Of a DNA stretch of 44,023 nt, positions 2,316 through 29,700 are shown piece after piece. The stretch comes from Rhizaria sp. SCN 62-66. Lineage: Eukaryota. The stretch lies in assembly GCA_001724265.1 (NCBI GenBank), contig MEDY01000258.1, positions 1 through 44,023 of the forward strand, read 5' to 3'. Numbering within the stretch: position 1 is the stretch's first letter; the number at the start of each line of letters is the position of its first letter. Position numbers and translations under genes: made by a program. Below the pieces are notes generated by a model. That model worked only from the letters and a program-made list of their open reading frames with translations. It had not been told where the DNA came from and searched no databases.

Positions 2316-5300
2316 TCAGACCTGCGTTGCGGCGGCAAGCTGCAGGGCCCAGTGCAGCGTCCACGCCGCAAGCACCTGGTCGGCCGACTCCGGTACCGCT
2401 GGAATGCCCTGGATCGTCAGCTGGCGCAGGCGGCGGTGGGCGTGGCGGTGCGCGCGCGTGAGGGCCTGCAGAGCGCGCTTATCGGCCTTGACCTCAGCCT
2501 CAGTCTCAGCCTCAGCCTCAGCATCGGCGTCCGCGTCAGCGTCGGCATCGGCAGCCGGGTCAGGCGTAGGCTTGCTCTCGGCAGCCTTGGCTTTTGACCG
2601 GGTGATGAGCTTACTCGGAGTCTTTTTCGTCTCCGGTTTGGCGTTACTAGCGCCCTTCTCGCCCTCATCGTCATCGTCGTCATCGTCGTCGTCGTCGTCG
2701 TCACTGTCGCTGGCACCGTCGCTAGTAGAGTGCGTGCGCGCCTTAAGCCCAAACAGCGCATTGACCATCCCGCCCCCGACGACAACATCAACACCTGCAG
2801 CCACAGTCGCGTTGCTGTTGTTCGCCGCAGCATTGCTCTCCGCAGCACTTGCAGCGGCAGCAGCGGCAGCGACAGTGGCCGTGGCAGCGGTGTGGCAGAC
2901 CGGCAGCGGGTCCGGGACCAGCCGCGCCCAATGCGTTAGTGCCAGCATGATCCTGAAGATCACGCCCACGCGCGCGTGCGCGGCCGCCAGCGAGGCCTCC
3001 GCAGTTGCCGCGGCGGTGATGCACGCCGCCGCCACGGCCTCGGCCACGGCGACAGCGCTCGACACCGCAGCGCCGCCGACAGTGGCACTTATACTCGAGG
3101 AACTTACACTCGCCGTCGCGTTGTTAGCACGCGCAGAGTTCAAAGTGGCGCCTGTGCTGCTGTGCTTTTGCTGTTGTTGCAGAACGATGTTTCTCCGCGC
3201 AGCGCGCAGCCGGCGGCTCGCGCGGCGGGCGTCCGCGGCCGCGCGCGTTGCGGCCGTGGTCGTGCGCAACAGAGCCTCGATGCGCAGCCGCACCCACCGC
3301 AGCTGCGCGGGCTCACTCAGAGACTGCGCATCGAGCTTCGACTGCAGACCTGACTGTTGCAACTGTGAGTGAGAGCAGGAGCATGGGTGCGTTGTCGAAC
3401 CCGCGGCAATGTTGTTGTTGCTCTGGACAATCGCGATGTTTTTGCTCACGCACGCGCGCGCAGTGGTCGCTGGCAGACTGTGCTGCGCCGCTGCGAAGGC
3501 CAGCGCTGACCGAGGCAGCGACAGCGACGAGCCCAGGGCACCTGTGGTGGCGTCGGCGGCGGAGCGGAGCGACCGGGAGAGGGCGCAGCCAGAGACGCGG
3601 GCAGGCAGCCACGACGGCGCCAGCAACATGCACGGCTGCTGACTCTGCTGCGCTTGCTCTTGCTGGTGCTGCTGTAACTGGGACTGAGGTTGAGGGATGT
3701 AGGTGGGGTAGGATAAGTATGAGTGCACGGGGACGAGTGACGCGTCATCACGGGTTCCTTTGTTGTAAGTGCTGCTGACACTCGCGATGGCAGACAACGT
3801 GGCAGAAGCGGTGTCGAGCAACGGGTGGTATTGGCTGTAGCTAAGCAGCTCTAAGCTCTGCTGTTGCTGCTGCTTTTGTTCGTGCTCCTGTTCCTGCTGT
3901 GAGACCACGGCGACTAGCTTTTGCGTTTGCCTGTTGGTGGCGCTCACTGCAGCCGCTAGTTCATGTGCAGGTAGCCAGTTCACAGTCTCCCACTCGATCT
4001 CGCCGCTAAGGGGGTACTTAGAGCCGCCCTTAGCCCGACAGCAAGCAGCACAATACTGACTCACCGCCGCGCCACTTGTGCCCGGCGACCTCGGAGTCGG
4101 AGAACTGAGAGCGGCGCTCGAGCTCGTCTTCGAGTTGGCGCCGGCGTGACTGCCGCTATGGGACGATGACGAGGGCGGAGGCGAGGGGAAGAGGATGGCG
4201 AACAGACGCGCGAGCGGGCTCACAGTGCCCCAGGCTTCGGGACTGTCCACCACGAGCTGCGCAACGCTGCACGGCGGCACCCACCAGGGACGCACGGTCA
4301 CGCGTTCCGCGTCTAAGGCGGTACTTACACCAGGGCACGCGTGCAGGGCCGACAGCGCGGCGCTCGCGGCGGTGACCGCGCGGTGCGCGGCGGCCGCGGC
4401 GGCGGCGGCCAGCGCGGCGGCGGCCGGGAACGGGCGCGCCGCGCTGGCGACGGCGGCGCTGAAGCTAAGTACTACGTCCTTGGACGGAGGCTGCTGGCAA
4501 GCGCCGAGGCGGCCTACGTTCATGAGCGCTGGAGCGGGGTACATAGACAAGGATTGGTAAGGGTGCCGGGCACTTAGATTCCCGTTGTAAGTACCGAGCA
4601 TGTAAGTGCCCTGTGCGTCGACGGAGTAAGTGCCCGCCTTGCAGCGCAGCGGCGGCGGGTAAGGGTAGCTGTAAGGGGCTAGCGAGCGGTGGAACGACGC
4701 GTGCAGGGGCACTAAGGGGGTCTCAAGCGTGTCTAAGTAGTCGCAGCAAAGGGAAAGTAAGTAAACAGAGCCCCTTAAACGCGGGCGCACGGACACTGTA
4801 AGCACCGCTGTCGGCACACTTACATCGACGCTACTCGCACTCGCATTGAAAGCTGCACCAAGACTGTTCTTGTTGCTGCTGCTGTTGTTGTTGTTGTTGT
4901 TGTTGCTGTTGCTGTTGACGCTAATGCGACGCTTAGTGTTCGAATTAGCGCTGCCAGCATAGGCACTCGCAGTTCCAGTCGCAACTGCATCACTGGCCTC
5001 ATGGTTGTCGCCACCGGCTTCATCGTCCTCGTCGTCCTCGTCACCATCGTTGTCGTCGTTGTCGTCGTTTTCAGAGTCGTCAACGCTACCATTGCTGGCA
5101 TAGTCACTCATGCTAGTGTTGCTTGCATTGTTGGCAGTCGAGCCAGAGCCGGTGGCAACGACAACGATACGGCGGCCGCGGTGGTTCACGCTCGCGTGTT
5201 TAGCGTTCGCCTCTGTGCTCGAAGCGTTATTACTTACCACGACAGCGTTCTTCGCCTTACCAGGACTGCTGCTGCTGCTGTTGTTGTTCGCGTAAGCATT

Positions 5301-7474
5301 CTTGAGCAGAGCCATTGCGCCTGAAATCCCCTTAGACTTCGACTTCCCACCCTTAGACGGCTGTCCACCCTTAGACTTAGCCCCCTTAGACTGGCCGCCC
5401 CTAGACCCAGCGCCCTTATGGCGCCCGCCCTTAGACGACCCGCCCTTGCTTGCGCCGCCCGCAAGACGCTGCTCCCCGTCTAAGTGGGTACTTAGACTCT
5501 CTAAGGAGTCGCACGCCGCGGCGCACGCAGCAAGCGCTGTAATAAGAGACGCACTCTGCGTGCGCGTTGCTGTGACCACAGCGGGCTCCGTCGCGACTGT
5601 GTACGCAACAGCAATGACGCTGTTAGCTGCCTTGCTCGGCGCAGCGACGGAAGAGTTGCTATCGGCGGAGTCGATCAACGTATTGTTGGTGGTCGTGGCG
5701 GCCGGAGCGTCGCTGTCGCTGTTGAGGCTCGCGCGGGCGGCAAGAGGCGTGATCGCGGCAACAACAGAGTCGCTAACAGTGTTTGCGATGCTGTTATTCG
5801 TGTTGCTACTGTTGGCACTCGTACTTATACTGACGCGAGGGCTTTGCGCAACGCTACCCGCGGCCGCGCGGGCACTCGCACTAGCACTCGCACTAGAGCT
5901 GGAGCTCGCAAAGGCAGCTTGAGTCGCGTGGCCACTGGGGCCGGCGGCGCCAGGCCGGCCGGACCGCGAAAGCTGCGACTGCGGCCGCGGCAGTGACGGC
6001 GGCTGCGGCTGCAACAACGCCGGCGTCTGGGTCGGCGTCGGCGTCTGCTGCTGTGGCAACGAGGGCGACGGCGACTGCGACGGCTGCTGAGGGGAAGGCG
6101 ACGGCGGCTGCAAAGGCGGCGGTGGCGGCGGCAGCGGGCGTGGGCGTAAAGCCTCAGCGTCAGCATCAGCGTCAGCATCGGTAGCGGTAACATTCGTAGG
6201 GCTGCTCTGTTGCTGTTGCTGCTGTTGCGGGAGTGCCAGAGCCAGGTCCTTGAGAGGCGTGCTACTTACAGTGGCAATTGGGGCACTTACACTGACAGTC
6301 TCGAACGTACCCGCGTTGCTACTGCGATTACTGTTGCTGTTGTTGTTGTTGCTGTTCGTGAGCAAAGTTGGCGTTTGCGAGTGTGAGCGCGTTAGCAGCA
6401 GCTTCTGAGACTGCTGTTGCTGCTGCAACTGCTGCTGCTGCGCCCGGGTCTGGGCTTGCTGCCGTGACGACGCCTGCGTCTGCGCCTGGGGCTGCATAAG
6501 CAGAGGTCGAGTCGGCGACGGCGACCGCGACAGCGGCTGCTGCCCCGGCGACTGGGACCGCGACCTCTCCGGCGACGGAGACCGCGACCGCGAGTGCAAA
6601 CGCGGCTGCTGCAGCAACGAGAGCGACGGCGACGGCGACGGCGACGGCAGCGGCGACTGCGAGTCCGAGCCAGCGTCGACGTATTGACCGTGAACAGGAA
6701 CATTTCCAGTGCCAGAGCCAGCGCCAGCGCCGGTGCCGTTGAGCGAGCGGCTCTGGCTGCGGCTGTGGTGGCTGCTGCTGTGGCTGCTGTAGCGGCGACC
6801 GTGGCCGGGACTGTGGCCGTGGCGGCTGTTATGGGTGGCGGTGTTGTAGACGTAGCTATCACTCGCCTCACCATCATCATCATCATCATCGTTGTCGTCG
6901 TTGTCGTCATCATTGCCGTCATTCTTGTTTTCAACGACTTCGTCTAAGTGCCACTTAGACTCGTCTAAGGGCGCTTGGGCGTAGTCTAAGTGCAACCGCG
7001 GCCACCACAGCTTGCGGCAGCCACTGCGACTGCTGCGGGTGTTTGATACACTTGTAAGCAGCTCGGATGTAAGTACCTCACGATGTGTAAGTACCCCGAC
7101 TACAACCATCTCACCACCACTATGATTAAACCCAGAACTAGAGATCAAGCCAGAGCCAGAGCCAGAGCTGTTGTTGCTGTTGTTGTTGTTGTTGTTGTTG
7201 ATAGCAGCGGCGGCAGAGACAGCAGCCCAGTCGCCGGCGTCAGCCCTGCCCCTTAGATAGACTAAGTAGGCCTCGGACGCCAGACCCCAGGCCACGGTCC
7301 TTGGAGCACTTACACCAGAGGCTGGGGTACTTAGACTGCCGCTGATACCAGATGCTGAAGTCACACGGCCGTTGCTGTTGTTATGGACGGCACCCTTGAC
7401 AGTGAAAGCAGTGTTATAACTCCGAGTGCTCGTAGTAGCAGCGCCAGTGGTTGTGCTAGTGTTAGCATTGCTAT

Positions 7475-7508
<34 letters not shown>

Positions 7509-10105
7509 AGGTTTGTTGGGTATTGGTGTCGGTAAGATCCGCGCACCAGCCGCGGACCACACGCGCGCCCCACTTACATTGTAAGGGGCACTTAGAGCCC
7601 CGGCCGTGCTGGTGCGCACGCGCGGCTTCTGGACTCCGCGCGCCGCCGCGGCAGCAACAGCGGCGACGGCGGCAGCGGCACCGCTGGCAACCAAGGCGCC
7701 ATTAACGTTTACATTCACATTCGCACTGCTGCTGTTGTTGTTGTTAGTGTTCACATTGGCACTGCTGTCTGCAACAGAGCCAGCGCCAGCGCCGGAGCCG
7801 GGGCGGCCTGTCATGCTGTTGCGAGCACTGCTGCTGCTCGCGTAATTGTTATACGTCGCGGAACCCGTGGGTCGCGTGTAAGTGTAAGTGCCGGCGTTGT
7901 AAGTGTACGCGCCCGCGTTCGCAGATGTTTGCAACGACGGCAACAGGGAACACTGCGCCTGCGGCTGCTGAGGTTGCTGCTGCTGCGGAAGCTGAGCCTG
8001 ATTCGACTGGGCATTGCTATGGCTGATGGAAAGAGTCGGCGGCTTGAGAATCAGCACAGCACGGTTGCTGCCTGCGGCACTTCCATGCGCATCTAAGTAT
8101 CCCGGCTCTAAGGGTGATCGTGTGAGTGTCTGCGCAAGAGCCAACGAGGCCAAAGACGTCACTGCAACAACGCACGTACTGACATCACGGATACTTACAG
8201 TATTGCGCTTCGTCCGGCGATTAGAGCTACTGGAACTCTTATTGTTAGTCGCAGTCGTGGCGGCGGCTACAGTAGTCGTTGTCGTTGTTGTTGATAGTGT
8301 TGGTGCTGCTGAAGTTGTGGTTGTGACACGAGCGGGGGTGGCAGATAAGTTAAGCCGCTTCGGCTTAATAGGACTTTGAATACCGCTAGCAGTCGCAGTA
8401 TGAGCAGCGTTAGCAGCACTGTTGTTAGAGTCCGCGCTCGCATCAGCCCCGGCACTGCCGACGCGAGGCTGCTGCTGACTGCGACTGTAACTCTGACTGT
8501 GACTCTGACTGTGAGCGCGTCGATGACCGCCGTGGCCGTGAGGGCTAGAAGCGCCGTTCGCACTCGCAGTGGCCGCCGCTGCCGCAACGGTCACCGCTGT
8601 TGTCAGCGCAGCGGTGGCGGCAGCGGTGGCGGCGGCAGTCGCAGCATCGGCGCCCGCGGTACCGCGAGCAGGCGCTGGCAGCAACCGCGGCAACAGCGAC
8701 ACAACAGAGCTCGGCAACACAGGGCTAAAATCAGTCGCAGTCTGCGCTGTACCTGTGCTTGGAGCGCGGCTCGTGAAGGGCGGTTGCCACTGCCACTGCC
8801 ACTCCAACTGCTGCTGCTGATGTGAGGATAGCGAGGCAGAGCCCGGAGCAGGGCTGTGCCGCGGGCTGGCGCTGCCCGCATCAGCGCGCGCGCCGCTTGC
8901 AATAGCGTGAGCGCTAGCAGTGGCGTCGGCCGGCCGGCGCACTAGCAGCACCCTGCCACTGCCGCTGCCGCTGCCAACGGCTGCGGCCGCGGCTGCAGGC
9001 GTCGCTGTTGGCGTCATAATCGCGGCAGGAGCGCCAGCAGTTGCGGTACCGGCGCGAGCAGTTGTCGTAGCAGTGGTTGTTGTGGCACGGACTGGTGACA
9101 CCGGAGATCTGGAGCCAGAACCAACAACAAGAACACTCGGGGCAGCAGCAGCAGTGGCAGCATTAGGAACAGCAATAGTGCTAGAACTTGGATTACTTGC
9201 ATTTGCGTTACGAGTCGACGTGTTTTCGTCGAGGGGGCCTAACTTCGGTTCCAGGCGGCCTACATTAAAGGAGGCCAGCTCAGCCTCTAAGTCATCCTCG
9301 AAACGACTACTAGTCGCAGTAGAAACACTCGTACTCTGCGTTTGCTGCTGCTTCAGCGGCGTCTGCTGTTGTTGTTGCTGTTGTTGCTTGAAGGGGGTGC
9401 GATATTGGCCAGCGGACGAAACGGCAACGCCCCCCTTAGTCACCCGGAACGCACCCTTAGACGGGGTGTACGTACCCTTAGACGGAGGCGTCTGCGGAAC
9501 AGCAGCAGTGTCGTCATCGACAGCCGCGCTGAGACTGCCACTCAAAGCAGCAGCGTTGGCGTTGTTGTTTGCTGCGGCCGCCTGTTGCGACGAGCTCATG
9601 CCGACGGCGTCATCGTCGGCAACGGGAGAGTCAACAACGACCTCTGATTTGCGGCCGTTTTCGGCAGTATTCGAGTTAGCGTTGTCAGCGTTGGCGCTGC
9701 TGTCGGTATCATTAGCGTCGCCGTCGCCGTCTTTGTTGTTGTTACTATAGTAAAACAGCGGCAACGGCGCGGCACTCGACGCGCGCAGCCTGCGCACAAG
9801 CTGCAGCTGTTGCTGCTGATGCGGGGCCTGCAACTGCTGCTGCAGCTGCGGCTGCGGCTGGGAGCGCTCGGAGACAGGAGTGGCGGTGGCGAATACGGTG
9901 ACCGTGAGCAAAGTCGTGTAGCCAGCGCCGCCCAGGGCACCCACATCCGGCTTAAGCGAGGTATTTATACTCGAGCTGCTGTTAATGTAAGGGCCGTAAG
10001 CACTTACAATGCCGCCAGTGATGAACTGCAACGCCCACAGATCGACAGTCGCCGCAGTCGCGCTAAAGTCAGGCCGCCTATCGAAGTCAGGCCGCCCATC
10101 ACTTT

Positions 10106-10143
<38 letters not shown>

Positions 10144-13100
10144 ATGGTCGCGTTGTAGTTGCGACTGCTGCTGCCGCTGCTGCTGCTGCTCGTCTTAGAG
10201 CGCTCGAAGTTAGGCCGCCCCCTGCTGCCCCAGACTGCGGCGGCGCCGGGCCCGCCGGCCGTGGCGGGTGCGGCGGCGGCGGCGGCGGTGATGGCCGCGG
10301 TGGCGGTCATGATCGCAGTGGCCTCGGCGGTGACCGTGAGCAGCTGTTGCTGAAGCTGCGACGGCGTCGCCACCGGCGGCGACGGGAACGCGGACTGAGA
10401 CTGCGATTGGGAGCTACTGCTGCTGCTGCTGGTGTTGTTGTTGCTAGTAGGAGATACAAGGAGTGACTGTGAGCTGGTGATGGTGGGGCGTTGCGGGGAA
10501 GTTAAGCCGCCTGGCGGCGAGTTCAAACTGCCTTCACGGACTAAAGTCAGGCCGCGCTTAGCACCCACAGAGCCCGAAGATAAGCCGCCCTTTGAGTTAC
10601 TGCTCATCGAAGCAGTCGTCTTGCTGCTATTGTTGTTGTTGTTGCTGCCACTCGACGCCAAAGTTAAGCCGCCCGCAAAGGCTGTGAGACGCCGGGCGAG
10701 AGCGTTCGCGGCCGCGGTGAGAGGCGCATTGAGCAGAGTGTAAGTGTGCGACTTGCCCTGCTTAAGTACTCCATTAGACTGAGTCAAGATGACCCTCTTC
10801 CGCGATGACTGCTGAGCGTTTGCACGGCCATTGCCGTTGACACTGCCGTTGCTGGTGAGCGCGTTGTAAGTGCCTTGATAGTCGGTGTAGCCGTAGCGGC
10901 TAAGCAGGGTACTTAGATCAGAGGGGAACGGCCGCGATGGCAGGCGCCATGAAGTTAAACCGCCACTCACGGAAGCACTTAGAAGTCCGGGAGTGTTAAG
11001 CCGCATCGGAGTACTTACACCGACACGCCCGCTATCACCGGTGGCCAGAGCGCTGCCGCTACTCTTCGCAGCAGTAGCAGCAGCAGCACTAGTAGCTGCC
11101 GAGGCGACTGTGAGCGCAAGGGCGGCGGACACTGCCGGGGCCGCGGCCAGCAGCGGCCTCAGCACTGCCGCCGGCGGCAGCGGCGGCAGCGGCAGCGGCA
11201 GAGGCAGCGGTGGCGACTGGCCGTGCATGGTAGCACTCGTCGCATTGCTGTTAAAAGCACTGGCACTCGCGTTGGCAGTCTCGACACGAGCGCTCGAAGC
11301 GCGGGAGTGCGCGGTGTTACTCGCGCTGTCAGCATTACGCGTAGTAGTGTAAGTACCGTTGCCAGTGTAAGTGGTGGGGACGAAGCCCTTCGTTCCGGAG
11401 GCTAGTGAGACAGCAACATCACAGCTGTCGCTGCTGTAGGCACTTACACTCGCCGCGAGCCGAGTTTTTGTAGCGCCGTGGTGACGAGAGAGATTGTTCG
11501 TGGTCTCGATGGGGGCGCTTAGATCGAATGTTAGAGCCACTCCGCCCACGCCCTCGCCGTCATCACTGATGGCAATGACGCCAGCGCTGATGGCAGCCGC
11601 CTCAGCATCCGCAGCAGCCGCCGCAGCAGCCGCAGTCGCCCCCGCAGGCACCGGCACAGGCGTAGGTACAGCAGCAGTCGAGTTACTCGCAGCAGCGCCA
11701 GCACTTGCACCCGCATTTGTACTCGCGTTTGTCGCATTAGAACTCGTGCTGTTGTTGCTATTAGCGTTGCCGTTAGTTGCGGCAGTGCTACCCATGGGTG
11801 CCCCGCCACCGGCACCGGTACCGGCGGTGCCCGGGATGACCGTGAGCAGCTGCGCCGCCAGCGCGTCGACCACGGTCACCAGCAGCTCGGGGCAGTGGCG
11901 CAAGGACCGCGAGCGGGGACCGTGGGTGACGGCGTACTGACGCGCCAGCAGCGACAGCAGGGACGCCGGCAGCGGCAGCGGCAGCGAGGCCGCCGCCGCC
12001 GTCGCTGAGGCTGCTGTGGACTGGGACTGAGGCTGCGGCTGCGAGAGTAGCTGCGATGGCGGTGGCTGTGAGCAGTCGCAGCGCTCGCAGTCGCCTTCAC
12101 TCTTGTGCTCGCAGTCAGCTGCGCTATCGGGGCTGCTGCGGCTGCTGCAGCTGCTGTGGCAAAGGCAGAGACAGAACGGGTCAGCCGCCGCCGCTGAACT
12201 CGTGCTTTGACCGCCGCCAACAGTACCATTGTTGGCAATCTTAACGCTTGCGCCGGTGTTAGAGTTGTTATTGGACTGGGGCGTGACCATGGGCAGCAGC
12301 AGCAGCACAGCCGGTGACGCCGGCGCAACAACAGCACCGACGTTGTTCGAGGCGTTGGTGTCGCTGGTGACGGGGAATGAAGCCGCCCCTTCGAGCACTA
12401 GGTCAGACACGGCACGCTGGATCTGCCTGTTAATCCCGACATTCACGCGCGCATTCATTGGAGTCGCACTCCCAGTTGCATTCGCGCTCGCAGCAGAAGC
12501 AGTGGCCCTGGCGTTGCGACTGGCACTGCGAGTGGCATTATCTCCGTTGAGATTGTCAGTGCTTGCCGATGATGTAAGGGTCTCGGCCGTCCGCCTGCTG
12601 GTGATGCCACTAAGTACCTCTTTCTCCTTGCCCTCAGCAAATGTAAGTGCGTTGCTGCCCCCACTGTTGTGATTATTGTTGTAAGTGCTCGAGAATATAA
12701 GTGGCAGCGTACCGCGGCGGGTGTTGTTAATGTAAGCCGCACTCAGACTCGGGCCCGGGGTACTGAGACCGTGGAGCTCGGAGCTACTTAGATGGAGACT
12801 GCGAGAGTTGCCAACGGGGCTATTAGCGGCGGATGAGGAAAAAGTGTGGCTATGGCCGTTCTTTTCAAGAAATGAGCCGCCATTGTTGTTGTTGTTGTTG
12901 GTACTGCTAGCGTTGCTGCTATAGTCGGAGAGAGAGGAGAAAACGGCTGAAAATCGGCGCGGGGAGGGATTGACTTTCCGCACGGGGGTGCTTAGGTCAT
13001 CGATGGGGCCCATAAGAGGGGAGAAAGTGCCAAAAGCACCCTCCTTGCCATCCTCATCGTCGTCCTCTGCATTGTCATTGGCATTGGCATCCGCAATTGC

Positions 13101-16100
13101 AGCAGCAGCAGCAGTAGCAGCAGCAGTCATAGTGTCGGTGTCAGCGTCAGCGGAAATGGCTGCGCTACGATTGCTGTCGCTGTTGCTCTTAAACTGCTGC
13201 TGTTGCTGTTGCTGTAGACGACGTGAAGGGGCCGGGCCGGGGGTAAGGGACGAACCCTGGCTAAGTGCCCCGCGCCTAAGTACCCCGTCGTCTAAGTAAC
13301 CGCCCTCCATGCCGTCTAAGTGCCCCCTCACACTGTTCTGCAGCAACGACAGCTGCGCCTTCTGCGCCTGAGCCTGCGCCTGCAACTGTGCTTGGCGAGG
13401 TTCAGAGTCGTCCAGCGGCGGCACCGGCGGCAGTGGCAGCAGAGGCACTGACGGCGTAGACTTAGCACTGTGAGTCGCCGTTGTCACGGTGTTTGTTGCT
13501 GTGCAGGCATGTGTGCTTGTGGACAGGATTGGTGGCAAGATCAGCGCCTCGGAGCTGCTGCTCGAGGCGAGCAACCCCTTAGACTGGCTAAGTACCCCCT
13601 TAGACCCGAACTCAGTGGCCGTGAGCTGCGCGTGCGACCGCGAGTGCACCAGCATATGCGGCTGCAATCGCGGCTGCGCCTGTGCCTGGGACTGAGCCTG
13701 GGACTGGGCTGCCGTTGGCGTTGAAGGGGGTAGATTGAGCGACAGTAGCCGCTGCTGCTGCTGCTGCCTCTGCTGCTGCTGCTGCTCCTGCGGCCGCTGT
13801 TGTTGTTGCTGCTGCAGCAAGATGCGTTGCGTAAGTACCTTCGGCAGTGTAAGTGACCCCCTATGAGCCCTTTGCTGACCGCTTGCACCGTCACTCACAT
13901 TTGCGCTCGCAGTGCTGCTGAAAGTATTCGTGTTGCCAAAAGGCAATCTCCGCAGCTGCTGCTGCTGTTGTTGTTGCTGCAGCTGCTAGCGTGTAAGTAG
14001 ACGGAGCTTAAGTACCTTGCTCGCGACGTTGAGTAAGGCCGCGGTCGCACCCGCCAAAACGCGAAACGCCGGCGCAACGACGCTACTACTACTGCTGCTG
14101 CTGTTGTTAGTGCTGTTATTCGCGCCGCCCGCGTGGGCGTTGCCACTGGCGCTCAGCGCGCGATTGCTCCGAGGAGCCGTGTTATTCGCGTTATGTGCGT
14201 TACTACTGCTGCTGTTGCTGCTGCTGTTGTTGGTGTTGGCGTTCGGCGAAGTACTCAGAGGTGTAAGTACCCCCTTGCCCTGACTCTGCGGCGGCAGACT
14301 GCTCGCTGCTGCAGGAGTAAGAGCACCCTTAGACGGCTGCTGCGGAGTCGTTAATGTAAGGGCCCCCTTCGACGCCACCGGCAACAAAAACCTGCCACCT
14401 TTAGAGGGAGACGCAGGAGCACTTACGCCGGAAGCCGAGGTACCTAAACCGCTCGCAGGAGCACTTAGATCCTTGGACAGCTGCCGATTCGCTTGCAACT
14501 GCAGCAAAGTGCCCCTGTTGCTGCTAGGGACCAGAGTGTTCGTGTTAGGATTCGCTGTCGTTGTTGCTGTTGTTGCTGTTGGTGCTTGTAGCGGCTGTTG
14601 CGGCAGTGGCGGCAGTTGTGTTTGCCAAAGCCTCTCTTCCTCTTCAGCAAGACTCATCACACGACGGCCCACGCTCGCACTTGCGCTGGCATCGACACTT
14701 GGACAGGCAGAGGCACCGTCAGCATTGGTCGCGCCACAGTCGCAGCTTGTCTTGCTCGAGTCTACGGTGTTATTGTCGTTGTCGTCGTTGCTACTGGACT
14801 TGCTGTTCGCGCTCAAAGTGGCTGCGTTGATGATAGCCGTCGTCGTGACCGTCTCCGCCGTATACACGTCGAGAGCTTTGGCCCAAACAGACAGCAGCAT
14901 CACCCCTGCGCCTGCGCCTGCCCCTGCACCTGTCACGGGGCCAGAGCCGGAGCCCGCCCCGCCACTGACACCCTGGCCCTGCGGTTCGGATGCGAGAACC
15001 CCTTGAGACCACGCGTCGAGCAGAGCGTCGAGATACTCCTCGAAATCGAGGCCACAGCGGTCTAAGTACCTACTTAGACTGCCGTATAGGTCTAGCTGTG
15101 GCCGTGCTGTAAGTGCCCCACCCCCGTCGCTGCCGCTGTTTGAACCCTTAGACTTGGACAGTGTAAGTACGCCCTTAGCGACGGCGGCACGCATGCCCAC
15201 GAGGCCCGCAACGCCGCCGCCCCGGAGCTGCGGTCCTGCGAAGACGGCCCTTAGACGGTCTAAGTACCCAGCAAACTCGAAGACGCAGCGCACCTGTTTG
15301 TTGGTCTGGATGCACGCCGGGCGCCGCTTGCGCACGATCTGGATCGCGGCTTGGGGCCTCAAAGCGCCTGGGCCGGCGCGCGCGTAGAGCAGCCACGCCG
15401 CGATCACCAGTCTGCGAAGCGCAAGAAATACCACAGATGATGGGATATAGTGCACAAGATAATATCTGTGAGACTTAAAACGTGACATTGAGATATAAAA
15501 TACGGTATTTCATATTGATCATTAAAATAAAGGAAATAATTAGATATTCTCATATAAATCGACGATAACAAAAAAATCCTGATTTTCTCCACAACTTTCG
15601 CATTGAGCTAAAGCAAGACTAATTACAAAAATGTGACGAATTGCATAGAGTTAAAAAAATATATGTTTGTTTTGTGTTTTTGTGAGTGATATAGCGTACC
15701 CTGTGCGGCCGTATCCCGCGTGGCAGTGGACCGCGACGGCCTCCCCGCGGCCCCGGATGTGCGTGTCCATAGTCTGCGCAGCAGCCAGCAACAGCTGTAG
15801 CGACGGCACGGCCATGTCGACCCACGCAAACGAGTACATGATCACGCCCGCGGTGTTGAGCAGCTCGGCGGGGTCGTAACTGAAGCCAGAGCCGCGCGGA
15901 TCGAGCCCGCCGCCGCACAGAGGATGCTAGCCGGGGATCTGCAGGTTGAACACAGCCGCGACGCCCTTTGCGCGCATCTGTTGCCAGATGCCATGCGTCT
16001 GGTTCAGCCGCGTGGCGGGCCGCTGCATAGCGATGATGCGAGGGGTGATCCACGTCGAGTTGAGCCCCCTTAGCGCGGATGTAAGGGGGTACCCGCGCTG

Positions 16101-16550
16101 CTGCGTCCAGTCCTCGTGCTTGCAACGCGCGCCGTTGCAGAAAACGCAGATGATTTGACCGTGAGGTACGGGCGGCGCAGCGGACCAGGCGGATCGAAGC
16201 ATCCCCTTAGAGGACTTCTTGTTCTTGCCCTTACCCTTGCCCGCACCGCCGTCAGCGTTCGTGTTGCTGTTGTTGTTGTTGTTTAAGGCGAGATAAGGGG
16301 TTGCGAAGAGGGAGTCTGAGCCAATGGACGACAATAAAACGCGTTTTTGTTGCTGGTCACTGGAGCCCGCCGCAGCCGCCGCAGCCGCCGCAGCCGCATT
16401 GCCACTGCTAGAGCCAGTGCTAGGACTGGTGACAGTGGTCGTCAGCGGCGGCAGATGGAAGCTGTTGCCGTTATTACTGTTGTTGTTGCTACTGAGTTGT
16501 GAGTCATACCAAACAAACGAGCCCTTCGCGTGATGCTGCTGTTGCTGCTG

Positions 16551-16643
<93 letters not shown>

Positions 16644-17012
16644 TTGTTGTTGCTGATGAAGCGTGAGCGGGCCATAGGGCGCAACCTTGCTCGAGCTGCT
16701 GCCAGTGCCAGTGTAAACAGCACCCACTGTGCCGCCGCCGCCGCCGCTGCCGCTGCCGCCTGGGATGCTATTGCCCGCGATGGCAGCGGCATGAGTAGCC
16801 GTTTGAGCGTGAAGTTGAGAGCTGGAGCGTAAGTATCCCGACGCAAGCGGCGCTGTGGGCAGGGCGCGCAGGCGCCCAGTGTGCGCGCTCGCAAAGCCGT
16901 TCGCGGCCGCGGCCAGGTCGCGGTCGCGGCTGCTGCCGTTGCCGCCGCCGCTGTTGGCGGAGGAAGAGGGATGAAGGGGCAAGGCGGCGACGGAGCTGGC
17001 GCCGCATCCCAT
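2316..17012 (-). CDS. PTPDC1: Giant PTPDC1-like dual-specificity protein phosphatase, join(17012..15700,15411..2316), ~4,802 aa if two in-frame TAG codons (15929-15927, 13988-13986) are read through
   Basis: Starts MGCGAS. PTPDC1-type segments: C..C.G..CKHE.W, GLNSTWITPRIIAMQRP, FNLQIPG*HPLCG...SGFSYDP, FAWVDMAVP, the catalytic loop HCHAGYGRTG (completed across the intron to LVIAAWLLY), and AIQIVRKRRPACIQTNKQ. The ORF-track pieces 15927..17132 and 15651..15845 share one frame, as do 13986..15488 and 2316..13946. Ends in TGA. Confidence 0.75.
15412..15699 (-). other. Spliceosomal intron (288 nt) in the PTPDC1-like gene
   Basis: GG|GTACGC...TTCGCAG|A, AT-rich. Splicing restores GRTG-LVIAAW. 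Confidence 0.9.
16554..16655 (-). repeat. Poly-Gln trinucleotide tract: 34 Gln codons, including 29 uninterrupted CAG
   Basis: (CTG)29 at 16554-16640 on the + strand, followed by (TTG)4 CTG. Confidence 0.95.
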
Positions 17013-17582
17013 CTTGGCGCGGGTGTGACGGGCGGAAACAACTGTGCGCCCACTTCTTATAGCCTCTTGTTGCTGGTGTGTAGTGCTAGAGTTTGCTGAA
17101 ACTCTGTTAAAGTGCTGTAGAGTGGGGAACAAAGAAGAACAAGTTCAAATTGTGTTAACAGGAGAAAGAGTGCTCTCTTCAAGCGCATACCAAGCCATAA
17201 ATGCGTTTCTAAATGATATTAAAAGCAGAATTAATACAAATATAGATATACTATCTATCCATCTTGGCTATGCTCTAGTTGACGGAAAGACCCCAGCGCT
17301 AGACACTCATAAAGTATCCCATCTCCCCGTTACTCCGACTACACAAACGGCTCGGACAAGGCAGCGATCGAGCTTGGTAACATCTCTCTTAATGTGTCCG
17401 CACCAGATCTGAGTAATCCAGAATAAGCGTCGCACATAAATAAGACATATCTTTATTTTTACCATGAGAGATCAGAAAACATCACAAAACAACCACATAA
17501 ACACGAAACATATCATAAAACTCGTGCCGTCACATAGGACGAAGCACCTCAAAGCGCGTCCCAAAGCGTTATACTTCGCTCT

Positions 17583-23159: not shown

Positions 23160-23231
23160 TGTACTAGCCGGGGTTTGAACCCGGGGCCTTTCCGTTGCGA
23201 ACGGAACACTCTACCACTGAGCCACTAGCAC
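23160..23231 (-). tRNA. tRNA-Ala(CGC)
   Basis: Cloverleaf GTGCTAG-TG-GCTC-AGTGGTA-GAGT-G-TTCCG-TTCGCAA-CGGAA-AGGCC-CCGGG-TTCAAAC-CCCGG-CTAGTAC-A, with G3:U70, A73 and a downstream TTTT. Confidence 0.93.
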
Positions 23232-23771: not shown

Positions 23772-26700
23772 TCACTGCTTAGTACCGGCGTTTGTGCCCA
23801 TAGTCGTCACTGCCGCAGGCTTGACAACGCGGAACATAGAGCCAAACGCTCCGGCTGCACCGAGACCAACGAGCTCAGGCTTCTGCAGCGCATTTGCAGT
23901 CGCACTCGCGGTAGTGCTCATGCTAGGCACAGCCGCAGTCGCCGCTACAGGCGCAGGCGCAGTCCGCGTGTTGACTGCTGTAACGTTCACATTGCTTGCA
24001 GTCACAGTATTTGCAGAAACAGCCGGAGCCCTTGATCCTGCAGCGGCAGAACTACTCAAGCCAGTGCTAGCGCTACTGGAGCCGGAGCCAGCACCACTTG
24101 CGCTCGAACTAAAGCTTGAGCTAGAGGGATGAGAACTGGAACTCGCGGGATTCGAGGCGGAGCCAGCGCTGCCAGGCTTCGGCCGCGCAACGATACGGCG
24201 CATCGGTGCGTGACTGCCGCCCGAACCGCCGCTTGAGGTGCTATCAAGGCCTGCAATCGTCGCTGTCGTCGTCGCAGTGCCCGCGGAGCCTGGGCCAGCC
24301 GACCCAGGCTTCACAGCGCCACTGCCACTGCTACTGCTATTGCTGTTGATGCTACTGCTATGACTGTTGTTGCTGAGACCGGCTGCGGAAGAAGCGCTGC
24401 CTGCGCGGCTCCCCATCAACACCGCCCGCGGGCCCGTCGCAGCCGCAGCCCCACTCGCACCACCACTCGCACTGCCACCGTGAACACTCGCACTCGCACT
24501 GGAGCCCGCACTCAAGACGGAGCTGCTTTGCTGTTGGCTTTGCGGTGGCTGGGCTGGGGTGGAGAGGGCGAACTTGGGGGAGCCAGTGGGCGGCGGCGCG
24601 CCCTGCGGCGGGGCAGGCTTGCGGGGCTTCATCGGCGTCGTCCCCGCAACGCCGCCCCCGGTCGCCCCGCCGGCGCCGGCAGCACTGGCACCGGCGCCGC
24701 TGAGGCTGGGACTGGGGCTGCGGTGGCTCGTGCCGCCGGTGCTCGCAGTGGAGACGGAGGGGCGTGAGCGCACGACGGCTGCAGGCGCGTTCGCGTCAGC
24801 GTTGTTGTTTGCAGTTGGGGCGCTGGCGCTGGCGTTGGCGTTCGCGCTGGGTGTAGAGAGACGGAGTCGAGCTGATGGAGCACGAGCAGCGGCAGGCGCA
24901 GCACTGGTCGCCGGAGCGCTAATCAACGCAGAATTGACTGAGGTCGCAGTCGCTGTTGCTGTTGCTGTTGCATTTGGAGCAGCGGAGTTTGATGGGCGTG
25001 CAAGAGAGACGACACGAGGCGTGGTCACGCTTCCAGGCGTGGCACTTACAGTTGCACTTAGACCACCGGGGGTACTTACATTCAAGCCAACACCGAGATG
25101 ACGCGCAGCGTTATCCAAGTCACCGTAAGCATTGCTGGTGTTATTGCTGAGAGGACTCATCACGTTGCTGCTGCGGCCGTATGCACCGTACTTGTCACTG
25201 CTCACAGTCACTCCCTTAGAGACGACCACCGCCTCAGTCTCAGCTTCAGCGTCGGCGTCATTGTCAGAAGGAGGCTCAGACTCGGGCTCAGGCTCATACA
25301 CGAGTTTAATCGTTGCACCAGTCCTCGTCGTCATCACAAAATCACTATTACCGTTATCACTGTCAATATCAGTCCTGTTTGCGTCGTTAACGCCAGCGAC
25401 AGTGCTGAGACTCATGCCCCACCCAGCGCCAACAGAACTCGTCTTGACTGCGTTTCGACCGTGACTCGCGCTGCTGCTGCTGCTGGACTTGCTTGAGCCG
25501 CGCATATTAGAAGCAGACGTTTGACCGCTTGACTCTGCAAGAGAGCCAACCAACCGCCCTCCAGCTCCGGAGCCAGTATTAGAGCTAAAGCTAGAGCTAG
25601 AGCCAGTTCCGAGAAGCTCAGCCAAGGCGGCCTCACCAGCTGCGTCATCGTCATCGTCAGAGTCATGATTCTGATACTTAGAGCCATAGTAGCCATGTTT
25701 CGCGGCGGAACTAGCTTTACCGGCGGTGGCGGCGGCGTTAATGCGCTGTTTCGCGCGCTCAGCGCGGCGTTTCGCGCCGCCAACGCCGTCGTCGCCGTCG
25801 CTTTCGCTGCTCTCTGACCCATGATATCCCGGCTTCTTGTTCGTAAGCTTCGCAGAGTTCTTACCAGCGTCACTCTTGCCGTTACCATTGTTGCTGAGGC
25901 TGGAAGGAAGGGCGCCGCCGGACATTGCGAGCACAAACGCCTCCGCAACGGGGTCACCCTTGGCTTGTTCCCACAGCCGCCGGACCTCCGCCTCCGCCTC
26001 CGTCTCCGCTTCACCTTGCTGCTGCTGCTGCTGGTTGTTCAGACGCGCGGCGGCGGCGGCGGCGGTACGCGCGCGGGCGTGCGCGGCGGTGTTCGTAATA
26101 GCGGCTTCACGGGACAGCAGTTCGGCCAGCTTGAGCAAACCAGAGTGTGGTGCAGCGAAAGCAGGGTCAGTGACTGTGGTGAGAGCGGTAACAGCGCGAG
26201 AGTTGGGGTTCGAGTTGGGGAGAGTGCGAGGAAAGGCGGCGGCCCATACTGAGCCGGCGGGGGGCTGCGGCGGCATCACTAGCCCCGCACTCACACTCTC
26301 ACCCTTAGAGCCAGTGACAGCAGAGGCAGCAGTGGCAGAGGCAGAGCTTGCGCTAATACCGGTCTTCGTACTCTTGCTTGACAGTGAAGAGCACAACGGG
26401 GCCGGCGCGAGGATAAGTCGCGAGATCAACGGCTCGACACTGCCGTTGTTACCGTAATCCCCGGTCAAATTAGCGTCCAACGCAGCCTCCGCCTCCGAGT
26501 CAGCGCCAGAGTCGTCAGATTCAGCGCCAGCGTCTGCGTCAGAGTCAGAGTGATCGATCCCCGTGCCCGCGGCCGCCGGCCCCAGCGCGGAGGCCAGCGC
26601 GCGCCGTCGCCGCCGCAGCAGCTGCTTGCGCGCGGCGCGCCTGGCCGCGGCGGCCGCGGCGGCCGCGGCGGCGGCGACGACGCGGCCAGCCCACTCGCCG

Positions 26701-29700
26701 CTGACACACGAGGCCCTGGTACTTACACGCGACGCGGGGGTACTTAGAGCGGCGTTACTTGCGTTCGCGCTGTTATTGTTGTTAGCGGTGGTTTTGAGGA
26801 GTGCGAGGAAAGGCTGCGGCAGAGAGTGTAAGTACGAGGGCGATAAAGCAGCAGCAGCCGGCAGCCACTCGTACCGCGACTGCAATACCGACATTAACAA
26901 CAAAGTGTCGGCGTCACTCGCGTCCGCGTTATAATTGTTCTTGCCGTTTTGGCTCTGTGCAGTCTGTGTAGCAAGTGACTGTGTAAGTGACTGTGAGAGG
27001 GTGACCGTGCGCGGGTGAGCCCGGTCAGCCAGGTACCCCGCTAGTTTCGCAGCCGCGGTCGCACTGAGAGCGCTGGTACTTACACTCGCGGCGGGGACGG
27101 AAGTTAAGCCGCCGACCGCGATCAGAGGGAAAAACACACTGGTAATGCCGCTCGTGTTGGTATTCGAGTTCGTTATCTGCGGCAGTGACTGTGTAGCGCG
27201 GACACGTGCCTGAATGTAAGCCGCCATGTGTTCCGCCGCCGCCAGCGAGAGCCCACAGTCAGTGAGATCAAGCACAGACAGTGCCGAGAAAACGCCAGTC
27301 GCAGCCACCGTATGACTCTGACTGGTGTAGTCACTGTTGTCGTAGTTGTTATTATCGAAGGGCGGCGGAGGCAGAGTGACTGCGAGCACGGTCGCGGCAC
27401 ATACAATAGCTGGGTCTTCGGTGAAACCAGCGCTGTTATTGTTGTTATTGTTGCCATCAGAGTCGTTGCCGTCGTAGTAATAGCTGTCATCATCATCGTC
27501 ATCATAGTCTTCGTCGTCGTCGTCGTTGTCGCCAGCGTGCGTGTTGTCAGAGACACTGTTGTTGTTGCTGTTGTTAGAGTTCGAGCTTAAAGCAAGGGCG
27601 GAGCGGAGAACGATAGGGGCCGCAGCAGTCGCAGTCAGTGACGCCACACTCAGCCTATGAAAACGCAGTAAGAAAGTGCGTTAGGAGCGCGAACAAAATA
27701 AATGGATAAAGTAGAATTCAAAAGTGAGATAAACGTGGATTTAACAATGTTTCAAGTTGTTTTTGGGAAGTTATAGAGAATATACGCCTGACTTATACAC
27801 CCGGTCGCAATCGCTTTGGCGAGCGGATACCATTCAGTGGCGAAAGAAAAGAAACAGCCTTTTGCTAAACAAAGTAGTTTCTGACAAAACTACTGTTGCA
27901 AAATAGTAAAGGTGTTTTCACAACATCAATCAAGTTTAGTTCATTTCGTGTGTGACGATTTAGCATGATAGAGTGAGATTTGATTTCATTTTTGAGATTT
28001 GATAGTGCGTACCTGCGGCCGTCATTCGTGGCCGAGGCCAGCTCCGCCAGAGCCCAGGTCACCAGTGACCTCAGCAGGGAATGCCGCGCCCTCACTGCAG
28101 CCACACTCTCAACACAACCACTCGCAGCTGCAGCAGCAGCACTGGCGCTAGCCGCAGCAGGAGAGCTAGACTGCTGGCCCGTGCTCGAAGGGTTGTTGTT
28201 CGTGCTTTCCCAGTCAAATTGGAACGACATAGGCACTCCTTGCGCAATCAACATCTCCTTCAGGCGGTCTTCTCCCCCCTTAGACTGGGAATCTCCCCCC
28301 TTAGATTGCAGCGACTCTGCAGTGTTTGTGGTCAAAAGCGCCCCCAGCGAGTCTTCGTCACGCTTTAACGCACTAATGCGGGCCAAAACGGCGTCCAACC
28401 CTTCCTTTTCGCCGTTATTATTCGCGCCATCCGCGCTTTTTTCGGTCCCGTACAGCGCCGCTTTCACGGCGTTCGGATCCGCCGCCGCAGCCGCCTCGGC
28501 CGCCGCTTCCCGTTGCCGCTGCAACTCTTGCTGTTGCCGCAGGAGCCGCTGCCGGCGTGCTCCTGTCGCTGTGGTGAGGTCTGTGGCGTCGGTGTCGAGC
28601 TCGGGGTGCGCGAGGGTCAGCCAGGAACTAAGTATCCCCTTAGAGCTCGGATGCGCAGCTGTTGCACCGGAAACAGAGCCATCTGCGCTACCGTTGCCGT
28701 TACCGTTGTTGTTGTTGTTTGCGCTAGAGTTGGCGTTAGAGAGCGAGGCGGGGGCTGGAGTGAGCATGTAGCTGTTGTGTGTCAGTGAAATGACAGAAAG
28801 CGCAGTCATTGGAGGCACTGGGGCTGCGGTAGACGCGATTAAACCGCACAAGGGACTCCACAGCTGCTGCTGCTGCTGCGGCTGCTGAGGTCGCTGCGAC
28901 TGCTGCTGTTGCGCTGCTCCTGCTGCAGTCGACGTTGCCGCAGTTGTGGAGATGGGTGTCGCTGTTGCAGTAGACGTTGTTGCCGTCGTTGTTGTTTTGG
29001 GTGGATGCGGCGAGAGTGCAGCCGCAAACAGCTGCGACGTTTTCGCGTTGGGCCACGGCAGGTTCGCCAGCACTTCCGGCACCGTCCCGAGCGCGCTGGC
29101 GGCCGCAGCGAAGGCTCCCAGACACTGGCGATCGCCGTCACCGACAGGGTGAGTGTGGCCACTGCCTTGCTCGATGTCAGGACCAGTGACGGTGCGAATG
29201 TAGCGCTGCTGTTGCGCAAGCATAAGGGCCAGCGCAGGCGCAAGCAACGGCACAAGAGTAGCCACAGCAGCCGCGTCGCCGCCACCACCGCCGCCAAGGC
29301 TCCTACCATTGCTGTTGCCGACAGCAAAGCCGCTCTGCATGCCCATGGCACTTAGACTAGAGGTACTTAGATGGCAAACCCACTCCCAGTGGTTCTGCGC
29401 GTGCGCCGGCAGCAGCGCGGGCAGTCTAGCCCAGAAGTTAGGCCGCCTCGGCGTCGCTAGTTGCGGCAATTGCGGCGCAGGCGCGTCAGACAACACCGAC
29501 TGCATGAGCGCTGCGGACAGTGACCCTCCGGCGACGAGTGTGTCGAGCACGTGAAACGCGGCGGCGGGGCCCAGCGCGTTGTGGCTAAGGTCCAAGTGCG
29601 TGAGCGTCTTGGCGGCCGGCGATAGTAACAAGGCGGGGACGACTGTGCGCATGAGGGCGGCGTCGGTTAAGCCGCAGTACGCAAGTGAAAGCCGCGTGAG

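Follow-up and report, generated by a model that had tools for sequence, protein, structure and literature searches.

The locus and its recurrent word

The analysis covered 44 kb of the genome of one uncultured wastewater eukaryote; this whole stretch is the window referred to below, and all counts were made within it. The region followed up here is a single gene (2316..17132, minus strand), which encodes an N-terminal DSP/PTP-like phosphatase domain with the signature HCHAGYGRTG and Pfam matches to Tc-R-P, Y_phosphatase, and DSPc. Behind this domain the gene continues as a giant low-complexity tail, some 4400 codons long, whose C-terminus is conserved. The gene was assembled from three open reading frames of the minus strand (15927-17132, 13986-15488, and 2316-13946), which are joined via two in-frame TAGs (15927-15929 and 13986-13988), and it contains one AT-rich intron (15412-15699, minus strand) with the borders G|GTACGC...CGCAG| read from the sequence. 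Homologues P0003-P0009 were found for this gene, and P0005 (1565 aa) aligns with the phosphatase domain and with colinear islands as far as the C-terminus.

The gene carries 117 cores of the form CTTA[CG]/[CG]TAAG in the span 3765..16230, and of the 184 such cores in the window 107 fall into the twelve 1-kb bins of 4001-16000. The first-pass annotation had described this motif as densely written into coding DNA, and all its coordinate examples were recovered in the present match list. The extended consensus is GGGG[T/C]ACTTA[G/C]AC with the 7-bp core [A/C]CTTA[G/C]A, so that the word is 7-13 bases long; half of the copies have CACTTA and not TACTTA. The flanks show GG at -4 and -3, C at +6 and no A/T tract, and around the word copies they hold no information beyond about 12 bp.

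The null expectation for the gene was obtained from 300 synonymous-codon shuffles that keep the protein intact. Against it the 117 cores compare with 51.3 ± 6.2, the 8-base form [CT]ACTTA[CG]A with its reverse complement was counted 49 times versus 4.4 ± 1.8 (shuffle maximum 11), and TCTAAGG/CCTTAGA 18 times versus 2.4 ± 1.5; the respective numbers for ACTTAGA and ACTTACA are 21 versus 1.6 and 30 versus 4.0. The motif was confirmed by this enrichment over a codon-shuffled control. The top 14 over-represented 7-mers all belong to this word, while CAG repeats rank below them, and no other non-triplet word family stands out in the 7-mer ranking. The word is also sharp: every single change at positions 2-5 occurs in the gene at background level (0-5 copies), and the lack of a one-mismatch halo argues against neutral decay of old duplicates.

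On the sense strand 65 CTTAS and 52 STAAG copies were counted (CTTAC 40, CTTAG 25, CTAAG 36, GTAAG 16), and the word is found in either orientation, as had been reported, and in every frame in which no stop arises. Depending on frame and strand it is translated into GTY, [VA]L[TS], [YH]LD, SKG, or [VL]S[TA]P. The further statement that it never introduces an in-frame stop holds for the word but follows by definition from its position inside an open reading frame, and the two TAGs of the gene lie outside the word. An "ambush" role by hidden stops was considered and rejected, since off-frame stops number 377 versus a synonymous expectation of 417 ± 14.5 and thus show no excess; the 40 sense CTTAC copies give a stop in no frame.

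The idea of a general code of exons had to be abandoned, because the word is gene-specific and limited within the 44 kb to three low-complexity genes, with no enrichment in conserved neighbour genes and intergenic DNA. The second of these genes (23772..27647, minus strand) has 11 extended copies versus 0.5 expected from a first-order Markov model, and the third, with a weak LRR match (27865..30102, minus strand), has 5 versus 0.3. Neither gene length nor GC content predicts the word among the Sin3 and TIG/TRP genes of the window: the Sin3 gene (6 kb, GC 0.67) has zero extended copies in its exons, and the TIG/TRP gene (6 kb) has 1. The sole extended copies of the Sin3 gene are three head-to-tail 10-bp copies of CCCACTTACA (31733..31762, plus strand) near the 5′ end inside its intron 31725-31942, which shows that the word can also occur outside coding DNA. 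The non-coding DNA of the window, 5913 bp, contains 1 extended copy, an odd result if the site acts purely at the DNA level.

The word at conserved residues

The word is spelled by the rare codons TTA, CTA, GTA, and AGT, also at residues that are conserved in homologues. In the large gene 21 of 36 TTA, 14 of 35 CTA, and 13 of 38 GTA codons lie inside the word. Its YL dipeptide is written TAC TTA in 9/13 cases, TY is ACT TAC in 12/15, and VL is GTA CTT in 11/24, while the conserved neighbour genes use the same codon pairs in 1/7, 0/4, and 0/31 cases, respectively.

The dyad CTTAG-N5-CTAAG at 15250..15264 (sense GGG TAC TTA GAC CGT CTA AGG) encodes GYLDRLR, where the homologues have YLTELR and FLSSLR without any indel; here, consequently, rare codons spell the word on conserved residues. 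On another conserved island the dyad 7252..7266 (sense GCC TAC TTA GTC TAT CTA AGG) gives AYLVYLR against AYVAFLK in P0005, and the three copies at 4712..4761, again on a conserved island, encode VYLLS, DYLDT, and TPLVP, which are TYIMV, DFLDT, and TPFVS in P0005. Within the phosphatase domain the pair 16069..16085 (sense CCC CTT ACA TCC GCG CTA AGG GGG) encodes PLTSALRG, while three homologues show PASAAIRG, PQSCAIRG, and PDTCAIRG, so in this position the word coincides with conservative amino-acid replacements. Neither on the three conserved islands nor within the phosphatase domain does the alignment to homologues show an indel at the copies, so the copies at conserved sites probably originated by substitution.

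According to these data, synonymous codons and conservative replacements spell the word out wherever the frame permits it without a stop; in particular genes its exact form is maintained, either by selection or by some ongoing sequence-specific process. The proposal that a signal at the DNA level shapes the amino-acid sequence stood up well, given the synonymous enrichment, the occurrence in three frames and two orientations, and the rare codons at homologue-conserved residues.

An alternative at the protein level is that SKG, [VL]S[TA]P, GTY, YLD, and VLT are short linear motifs of the disordered tail, which share a DNA word by coincidence of descent. The peptides SKSKG, G[AV]LT, and [YF]LD do recur at aligned places in homologues, and the choice of variant depends on frame (TTA GAC 17 versus TTA C 4; CTT AC 16 versus CTT AG 8), which implies that the protein filters the allowed forms. 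This explanation is nevertheless hardly probable, since one DNA word underlies five unrelated peptides in differing frames and strands, the enrichment persists under the protein-preserving shuffle, and the codon pairs are rare, other genes using different ones for the same dipeptides.

That the copies are insertions of a small mobile element, or footprints left by its excision, has the lowest probability of all readings considered here. This would account for a short, sharp, orientation-free word that contains TA, with TACTTA being of TA-NN-TA form, and the core resembles the extended target of PIF/Harbinger elements; a literature search for that extended target word gave no match. Half of the copies carry CACTTA instead, the conserved-island copies align with homologues without indel, and an element with matching ends was not found in the 44-kb window. 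In line with this, transposon insertion or footprint was rejected by comparison with P0003/P0005, which revealed no extra bases at GYLDRLR, AYLVYLR, and DYLDT, a comparison limited to conserved islands. As regards footprints, the abstract of PMC4561436, a paper whose title concerns how sites of mPing excision are precisely repaired, sets Tourist-type MITEs apart from Stowaway/Mariner elements, which according to it usually leave footprints behind.

5′ splice sites or tiny introns were also rejected as the source of the word, because only 16 of 52 sense STAAG copies are G-initial and every copy keeps the reading frame and contains no in-frame stop; the three introns that were read begin GTACGC, GTAATT, and GTACGC. 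RNA-library contigs are colinear over 5122-5712, bearing in mind that such a library can hold DNA.

Spacing of the copies

The 117 cores form 53 clusters (22 single, 14 double, 11 triple, and 6 larger), which are separated in the gene by irregular gaps of 42-1109 bp. Opposite-orientation pairs within 45 bp lie 10 or 11 bp apart in 14 of 30 cases, and same-orientation pairs, spaced in multiples of 3, peak at 21 bp (11 pairs). The phasing of about 10.5 bp and the correlation peaks near 10.5 and 21 predicted by the first-pass annotation were thus found in part: over all pairs the count is 15 for lags 10-11 and 12 for lag 21, falling to 2 for lags 31-32 and 3 for lag 42, and the TA steps themselves are not phased.

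Phased sites for a DNA-binding protein, the other option of the first-pass annotation, are a possible reading, but the spacing of 10-11 bp is better described by abutting units than by helical phasing, since units of 10-11 bp abut as dyads of about 20 bp (STAAG-N5-6-CTTAS and CTTAS-N5-STAAG), which places opposite-orientation neighbours at this distance. As read from the sequences, the core TA steps within dyads are 12 and 9 bp apart. The G/C variants of adjacent pairs are complementary in 13 of 19 cases, the expected fraction being about 0.45. For example, an abutting triple with alternating orientations lies at 13578..13603 (CTTAG 13578, CTAAG 13588, CTTAG 13599; sense GSKGVLSQSKG), and at 6944..6990 there are four units (6944, 6954, 6965, and 6986), the first two of which form a 9-bp perfect inverted repeat. 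The densest cluster, 5331..5505, combines a degenerate tandem array (15-30 bp), which encodes (S/A)KGG, with a subsequent three-unit alternating array at 5480-5505.

Nucleosome positioning, the original interpretation, in which TA words one helical turn apart fix rotational settings in GC-rich exons, finds no support in this analysis and is considered very unlikely. It is in agreement with the neighbours at 10-11 and 21 bp, and the positioning sequence Widom 603 contains GTCTAAGTACGCTTAGCG, a CTAAG-N4-CTTAG dyad in GC-rich DNA that resembles the present dyads (PMC10419094). However, the TA-TA autocorrelation has no excess over the synonymous null at lags 10 and 11 (8 versus 12 and 9 versus 16), exceeding it at lag 4 only (44 versus 16), which is the TACTTA word itself, and the 12- and 9-bp distances within dyads are likewise not those of a helical turn. 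The spacing signal ends at 21 bp, arrays of 20-45 bp do not approach about 147 bp so that nothing spans the nucleosome length as in Widom 601/603, clusters are irregularly placed and mostly of 1-3 copies, and the word is gene-specific and near-absent from non-coding DNA. The weak 10.5-bp WW periodicity that does exist reaches at least the same strength where the word is missing (motif-free neighbour genes z 5.6, masked 4.7; the large gene z 3.1, masked 1.7).

Complementarity of neighbours might also be read at the RNA level, where opposite copies would pair in the 15-kb mRNA as hairpins, over long range, or between molecules, or two RNA-binding proteins would read the two orientations. The word lies in transcribed DNA only, that is, in exons and one intron, adjacent pairs could form stems of 6-9 bp, and of the mismatches within the 19 pairs 16 are G-U-compatible on the sense strand versus 8 A-C; still, this split lacks significance, and the sense strand is rich in G. 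Five sense folds gave z of +0.89, -2.47, +0.59, -1.76, and -1.32 and were no better than their antisense counterparts (+1.23, -4.59, +0.54, -0.74, and -5.50), most copies have no nearby partner, and the pairing counts are unequal (CTTAC 40 versus GTAAG 16, CTTAG 25 versus CTAAG 36). Overall, RNA pairing or binding seems rather improbable.

Repeat dynamics or protein recognition

A more serious competitor, though still an unlikely one, is a functionless repeat by-product, in which a quasi-palindromic unit of about 21 bp (SKGVLT/Q) spread in low-complexity open reading frames by slippage and unequal exchange; slippage in G runs would shift frames, template switching at quasi-palindromes would invert neighbours, and selection would only purge stop-making copies. 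Such an origin suits the confinement of the word to three low-complexity, fast-evolving open reading frames, the same-orientation spacing in multiples of 3, mostly 21, the upstream G run through which the frame could shift, and the orientation ratio of 65:52, which by our own arithmetic equals the 5:4 expected of orientation-blind creation with a stop-codon filter. Similarly to coding minisatellites and cryptic simplicity, some copies sit in degenerate tandem arrays of 15, 21, and 30 bp. In contrast to them, most copies are solitary and the word is exact amid unrelated surroundings. A tandem coding minisatellite as such was rejected, because Tandem Repeats Finder gives motif-bearing arrays only at 5361-5447, 7873-7919, and 13261-13298, single copies make up 22 of the 53 clusters, and the flanks are uninformative past about 12 bp. 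The absent one-mismatch halo and the indel-free origin of copies at homologue-conserved residues also speak against repeat dynamics, and with one non-triplet word family standing out the pattern is not that of general cryptic simplicity.

The explanation preferred here, held tentatively at roughly one chance in three, is that the word is a recognition element on double-stranded DNA for a sequence-specific protein, with a type IB topoisomerase as the most concrete candidate. One protein unit would occupy a single copy and two would occupy a dyad of about 20 bp, and the candidate enzyme would act at ACTT|AGA cores. The human topoisomerase I "preferred" substrates CL14 and CL25 contain ...GACTT|AGA... 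with cleavage after TT (PMC1636438) and are derived from the Tetrahymena rDNA hexadecamer (PMC1636438; PMC2760795); the general base preference stated for the enzyme is T at -1 (PMC1636438). In the large gene this core, with T at -1, occurs in the 21 exact ACTTAGA copies noted above. Judging from its title, the work of Bonven et al. (1985) reportedly mapped the hexadecamer in rDNA chromatin to DNase I hypersensitive sites.

The word and the hexadecamer site share the identical 7-bp core and are both DNA-level, orientation-free, and clustered, the hexadecamer in a heavily transcribed unit. They differ in that the hexadecamer sites lie in rDNA spacers while the word copies are inside protein-coding exons, the variants ACTTACA and CCTTAGA are equally common, and the A/T-tract flanks of the topoisomerase I 16-mer are absent from the word copies of the large gene, being replaced by G/C-rich ones. 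Since the match extends over 7 bp only and was found post hoc, by recalling known motifs, it may serve as a lead. A T-at--1 preference, it may be added, leaves the invariance at +1 and +3 unexplained, and the failure of gene length and GC content to predict the word likewise tells against the preferred explanation.

If such an enzyme acted here, a dense set of strong sites could help to release torsional stress or resolve R-loops in a GC-rich, repeat-laden gene of about 15 kb, and the orientation of sites would not matter, as a nick on either strand relaxes the duplex. A fuller picture, which is speculative and rather doubtful, is a gene-specific "second code" in exons: dozens of exact sites recognized by some DNA enzyme or DNA-binding protein, plausibly by topoisomerase I as strong sites, would be written by synonymous and conservative changes over giant repeat-rich open reading frames, which would thereby stay stable and open to transcription but pay for it with rare codons and altered residues.

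Over-represented oligonucleotides of coding DNA are established genome-wide in prokaryotes as uptake sequences, HIP1, Chi, and KOPS. The present word resembles them in being short and exact, in occurring in both orientations, in all stop-avoiding frames and partly in inverted pairs, and in being held against codon preference, and it differs in being eukaryotic and limited to three genes in 44 kb. As a rule, signals at the DNA level that share their bases with coding sequence are weak and statistical. Here the non-triplet composition of a 14-kb open reading frame is dominated by one exact word, which overrides codon preference and alters residues in a conserved domain, yet is missing from neighbour genes. 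Should the word prove to be a protein recognition site, it would offer an unusually clean example from nature of a function superimposed on a reading frame and would show how cells handle genes that are very long, GC-rich, and repeat-laden; a repeat by-product would instead show how far repeat dynamics can shape protein sequence.

An exact word in a giant gene

The [G/C]TAAG and CTTA[C/G] copies exemplified by the first-pass annotation were all recovered in the motif list, and the finding falls within a single minus-strand gene (2316-17132). Triplet repeats apart, the highest-ranking 8-mers in the window are GGTACTTA, ACTTACAC and CACTTACA, each present 23 times with strands pooled, against 0.8 expected by base composition. 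Alignment of all 184 CTTA[CG]/[CG]TAAG cores gave G-G-[C/T]-A-CTTA-[G/C]-A-C, with flanks identical in kind for the G and C variants and no information farther out. The word has its right half in common with a second form, CCCCTTAGAC (reverse complement GTCTAAGGGG).

As a null model, the 4780 codons of the giant gene were shuffled 300 times, each codon being exchanged only with its synonyms. The cores numbered 117 against 51.3 +/- 6.2, and TCTAAGG/CCTTAGA 18 against 2.4 +/- 1.5. The comparison with codon-shuffled controls that had been proposed together with the motif yielded enrichment, also for the 8-mer [CT]ACTTA[CG]A and its complement (49 copies against 4.4 +/- 1.8, or 9.2 +/- 2.4 when each codon also kept the base that follows it). 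In the ranking of 7-mers against the synonymous null, places 1-14 all derive from the word, with CAGCAGC behind them, so this is a single special word and general cryptic simplicity does not apply. Frequent forms are ACTTAGA (21; null 1.6), ACTTACA (30; null 4.0) and CCTTAGA (18; null 2.4), whereas single-base variants at positions 2 to 5 all stay at background with 0-5 copies. Old duplicates in neutral decay would have left a halo of such near-copies, and this halo is absent. The main rival to a protein recognition site, namely that repeat dynamics produced the word and it has no function, leaves this sharpness unexplained.

Independent assemblies of other runs contain long pieces of the giant gene with 0 or 1 differences, so the word is not an assembly artefact. 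This Logan contig evidence is confined to long colinear pieces; low-complexity cross-matches swamp the tables (at least 876 and at least 726 joints), and stretches lacking contig coverage carry no meaning.

Extended copies were counted per region and compared with a first-order Markov expectation. The tail (2316-13946) holds 55 (expected 1.5), the part at 13986-15411 holds 11 (0.3), the low-complexity gene at 23772-27647 also 11 (0.5), and the gene at 27865-30102 holds 5 (0.3). The PRP17-like gene has none (0.2), the TIG/TRP gene 1 (0.7), Sin3 3 (0.4), all of them intronic, and the 5913 bp outside ORFs 1. Thus, the signal is gene-specific, being neither general to exons nor seen in intergenic DNA, and the earlier notion of a second code in exons at large does not survive the 0, 1 and 0 extended copies of PRP17-like, TIG/TRP and Sin3 exons, respectively. 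Neither gene length nor GC content predicts the location of the word. Its restriction to low-complexity ORFs would be accounted for by repeat dynamics; solitary copies are left unexplained by the same process. The only extended copies of Sin3 form a perfect head-to-tail array of the 10-bp CCCACTTACA x3 (31733-31762, plus strand), directly after the 5' splice site of the intron 31725-31942, and the word has no other direct tandem array with a 10-bp period.

Reading frames, residues and spacing

On the sense strand 65 copies read CTTAS and 52 STAAG, and every stop-free frame is used. CTTAC occurs as CTT ACx (16), xCT TAC (20) and xxC TTA C (4); CTTAG as CTT AGx (8) and xxC TTA G (17); GTAAG as GTA AGx (13) and xGT AAG (3); and CTAAG as CTA AGx (14) and xCT AAG (22). 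Consequently, one word is translated into five unrelated peptides, [VA]L[TS], GTY, [YH]LD, [VL]S[TA]P and SKG, and since the choice of G or C varies with the frame, the protein filters the tolerated variants. The word is spelled with otherwise rare codons: 21 of the 36 TTA, 14 of the 35 CTA and 13 of the 38 GTA codons of the giant gene lie inside copies. Similarly, YL is written TAC TTA in 9/13 cases in the giant gene against 1/7 in the conserved genes of the window, TY is ACT TAC in 12/15 against 0/4, VL is GTA CTT in 11/24 against 0/31, and VS is GTA AGT in 13/42 against 0/32.

In the alignable parts of tail and domain, copies coincide with conserved residues and align without any indel. GGG TAC TTA GAC CGT CTA AGG (GYLDRLR) faces YLTELR and FLSSLR in relatives, GCC TAC TTA GTC TAT CTA AGG (AYLVYLR) faces AYVAFLK, GAC TAC TTA GAC (DYLD) faces DFLD, and CCC CTT ACA TCC GCG CTA AGG GGG (PLTSALRG) of the phosphatase domain faces PASAAIRG, PQSCAIRG and PDTCAIRG in three relatives. 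At least these copies therefore arose by substitution, partly non-synonymous, and not by insertion; copies on conserved residues are again unexplained by repeat dynamics.

Of the 30 opposite-orientation pairs within 45 bp, 14 fall in a peak at 10-11 bp, and same-orientation neighbours lie at multiples of 3, most commonly at 21 bp (11), an array spacing for which repeat dynamics would account. Among all pairs only 2 occur at lags 31-32 and 3 at lag 42. Hence, of the proposed 10.5/21-bp phasing the peaks at 10-11 and 21 bp stand, whereas the longer lags are nearly empty and TA steps are unphased: the sole TA-TA excess is at lag 4 (TACTTA, 44 against 16 in the null), and lags 10 and 11 fall below the null, contrary to TA steps spaced one helical turn apart. 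The window contains 19 close pairs, 11 STAAG-N5-7-CTTAS and 8 CTTAS-N3-9-STAAG, and these two forms indicate that units of 10-11 bp abut with alternating orientation, giving dyads of ~20 bp, which on the sense strand mostly spell SKG-VL[TS] and YLDxLR. Complementary variants are found in 13/19 pairs, the word itself being partly dyad-symmetric. No regular spacing of clusters was found, the gaps being 42-1109 bp (median 172).

The 10.5-bp WW periodicity is weak in the giant gene (z 3.1, or 1.7 with motif positions masked) and reaches z 5.6 (masked 4.7) over the synonymous-shuffle null in the motif-less genes at 17583-20290, 21269-22366, 31997-36937 and 38065-44022, which makes it a background property of the genome. 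Nucleosomes or protein helices could be its source.

The gene, its surroundings and in-frame TAG codons

The window is GC-rich eukaryotic nuclear DNA (GC ~0.60), and metagenome runs from several studies of bioreactors, wastewater and activated sludge contain near-identical sequence. The giant gene encodes an N-terminal phosphatase domain of DSP/PTP-like type (HCHAGYGRTG; Pfam hits Tc-R-P at 1.1e-06 and Y_phosphatase at 0.007), has one AT-rich intron (15412-15699, minus strand, borders read from sequence) and continues as a low-complexity tail with a conserved C-terminus at its end. Among 1.84 billion representatives, 715 relatives of the domain were detected by HMMER without a profile, and identity in the domain is 68% for homologue P0003 and 59% for P0005. 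The latter (1565 aa) matches the domain and colinear islands of the 3876-aa ORF through its last 25 residues, so the three ORFs (15927-17132, 13986-15488 and 2316-13946) are one gene. The phosphatase part had no match in a PDB sequence search, and ORF 13986-15488 matched only itself in a word-indexed search of proteins of 275-875 aa. A metagenome scan with the neighbouring WD40 (PRP17-like) protein returned 80 loci of 22-34% identity, generic WD40 genes of which none was usable.

The N-terminal portion of the phosphatase gene contains a poly-Gln run of ~40 CAG/CAA codons (16534-16655), and further triplet arrays (CAG, AAC, GCN) are numerous along the tail, the motif lying between and not inside them. 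Rfam found in the window only two tRNA-Ala genes (anticodons CGC and AGC; 23160-23373, minus strand), 70 bp apart in an AT-richer intergenic spacer.

Two in-frame TAGs (15927-15929 and 13986-13988, minus strand) interrupt the gene, each within GCTAGC. The first stands at the Glu of a conserved P/A/T-G-E-H motif, Glu in 6/6 homologues read, and shows 0 differences in contigs from other DNA runs and an RNA library; after it ~4380 codons are open up to the conserved C-terminus. These features suggest that the TAG is read through or recoded, and speak against a dead gene. Other genes seemingly end in TAA and TAG, and no suppressor tRNA lies within the window. The stop of the LRR-like gene (27865-27867, minus strand) is TAG followed by CAA, with an in-frame TGA 24 codons on; C follows both internal TAGs of the giant gene as well.

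Rejected readings and a putative recognition site

Several other explanations were rejected. A hidden-stop model, an idea prompted by PMC2996987, was dismissed, off-frame stops showing no excess (377 against 417 +/- 14.5). Codon-pair bias of translation was discarded as the same pairs are unused in the other genes of the window. For splice signals or tiny introns, only 16/52 sense STAAG copies are G-initial, introns of the window begin GTACGC or GTAATT, and poly-A RNA library contigs, possibly of DNA origin, are colinear over 5122-5712. On the sense strand, local RNA hairpins gained no stability over shuffles (z +0.89, -2.47, +0.59, -1.76 and -1.32) or over the antisense, and G-U against A-C in pairs was 16:8, not significant. 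TAG as a free sense codon is in frame in 0/25 sense CTTAG copies, and under TAG=E the giant gene alone gains length.

Bacteria are well known to carry exact over-represented words that overlap reading frames, and in eukaryotic genes periodic or factor-binding signals are known. Literature searches with exact 10-mers of the word returned primers and the 603 sequence only, and none of the matches listed for palindromes over-represented in the coding DNA of eukaryotes was relevant. The PIF target word, which the core resembles, had no match. Thus, these searches of the printed literature yielded no description of the word, nor of any similar array that is exonic and gene-specific.

According to PMC1636438 and PMC2760795, "preferred" substrates of human topoisomerase I contain ...GACTT|AGA..., cut after TT, and come from the Tetrahymena rDNA hexadecamer. 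Among the known motifs compared with the core this is the one exact match; the hexadecamer has A-tracts, unlike the word. Topoisomerase I is a candidate reader and a lead only, because the match is post hoc and spans just 7 bp, A-tracts are missing, gene length and GC content are not predictive and binding is putative.

Within 44 kb of one uncultured organism, a word that is exact, free of orientation and frame, gene-specific, written against codon preference and partly dyad-symmetric fits a putative recognition site for a protein reading double-stranded DNA.
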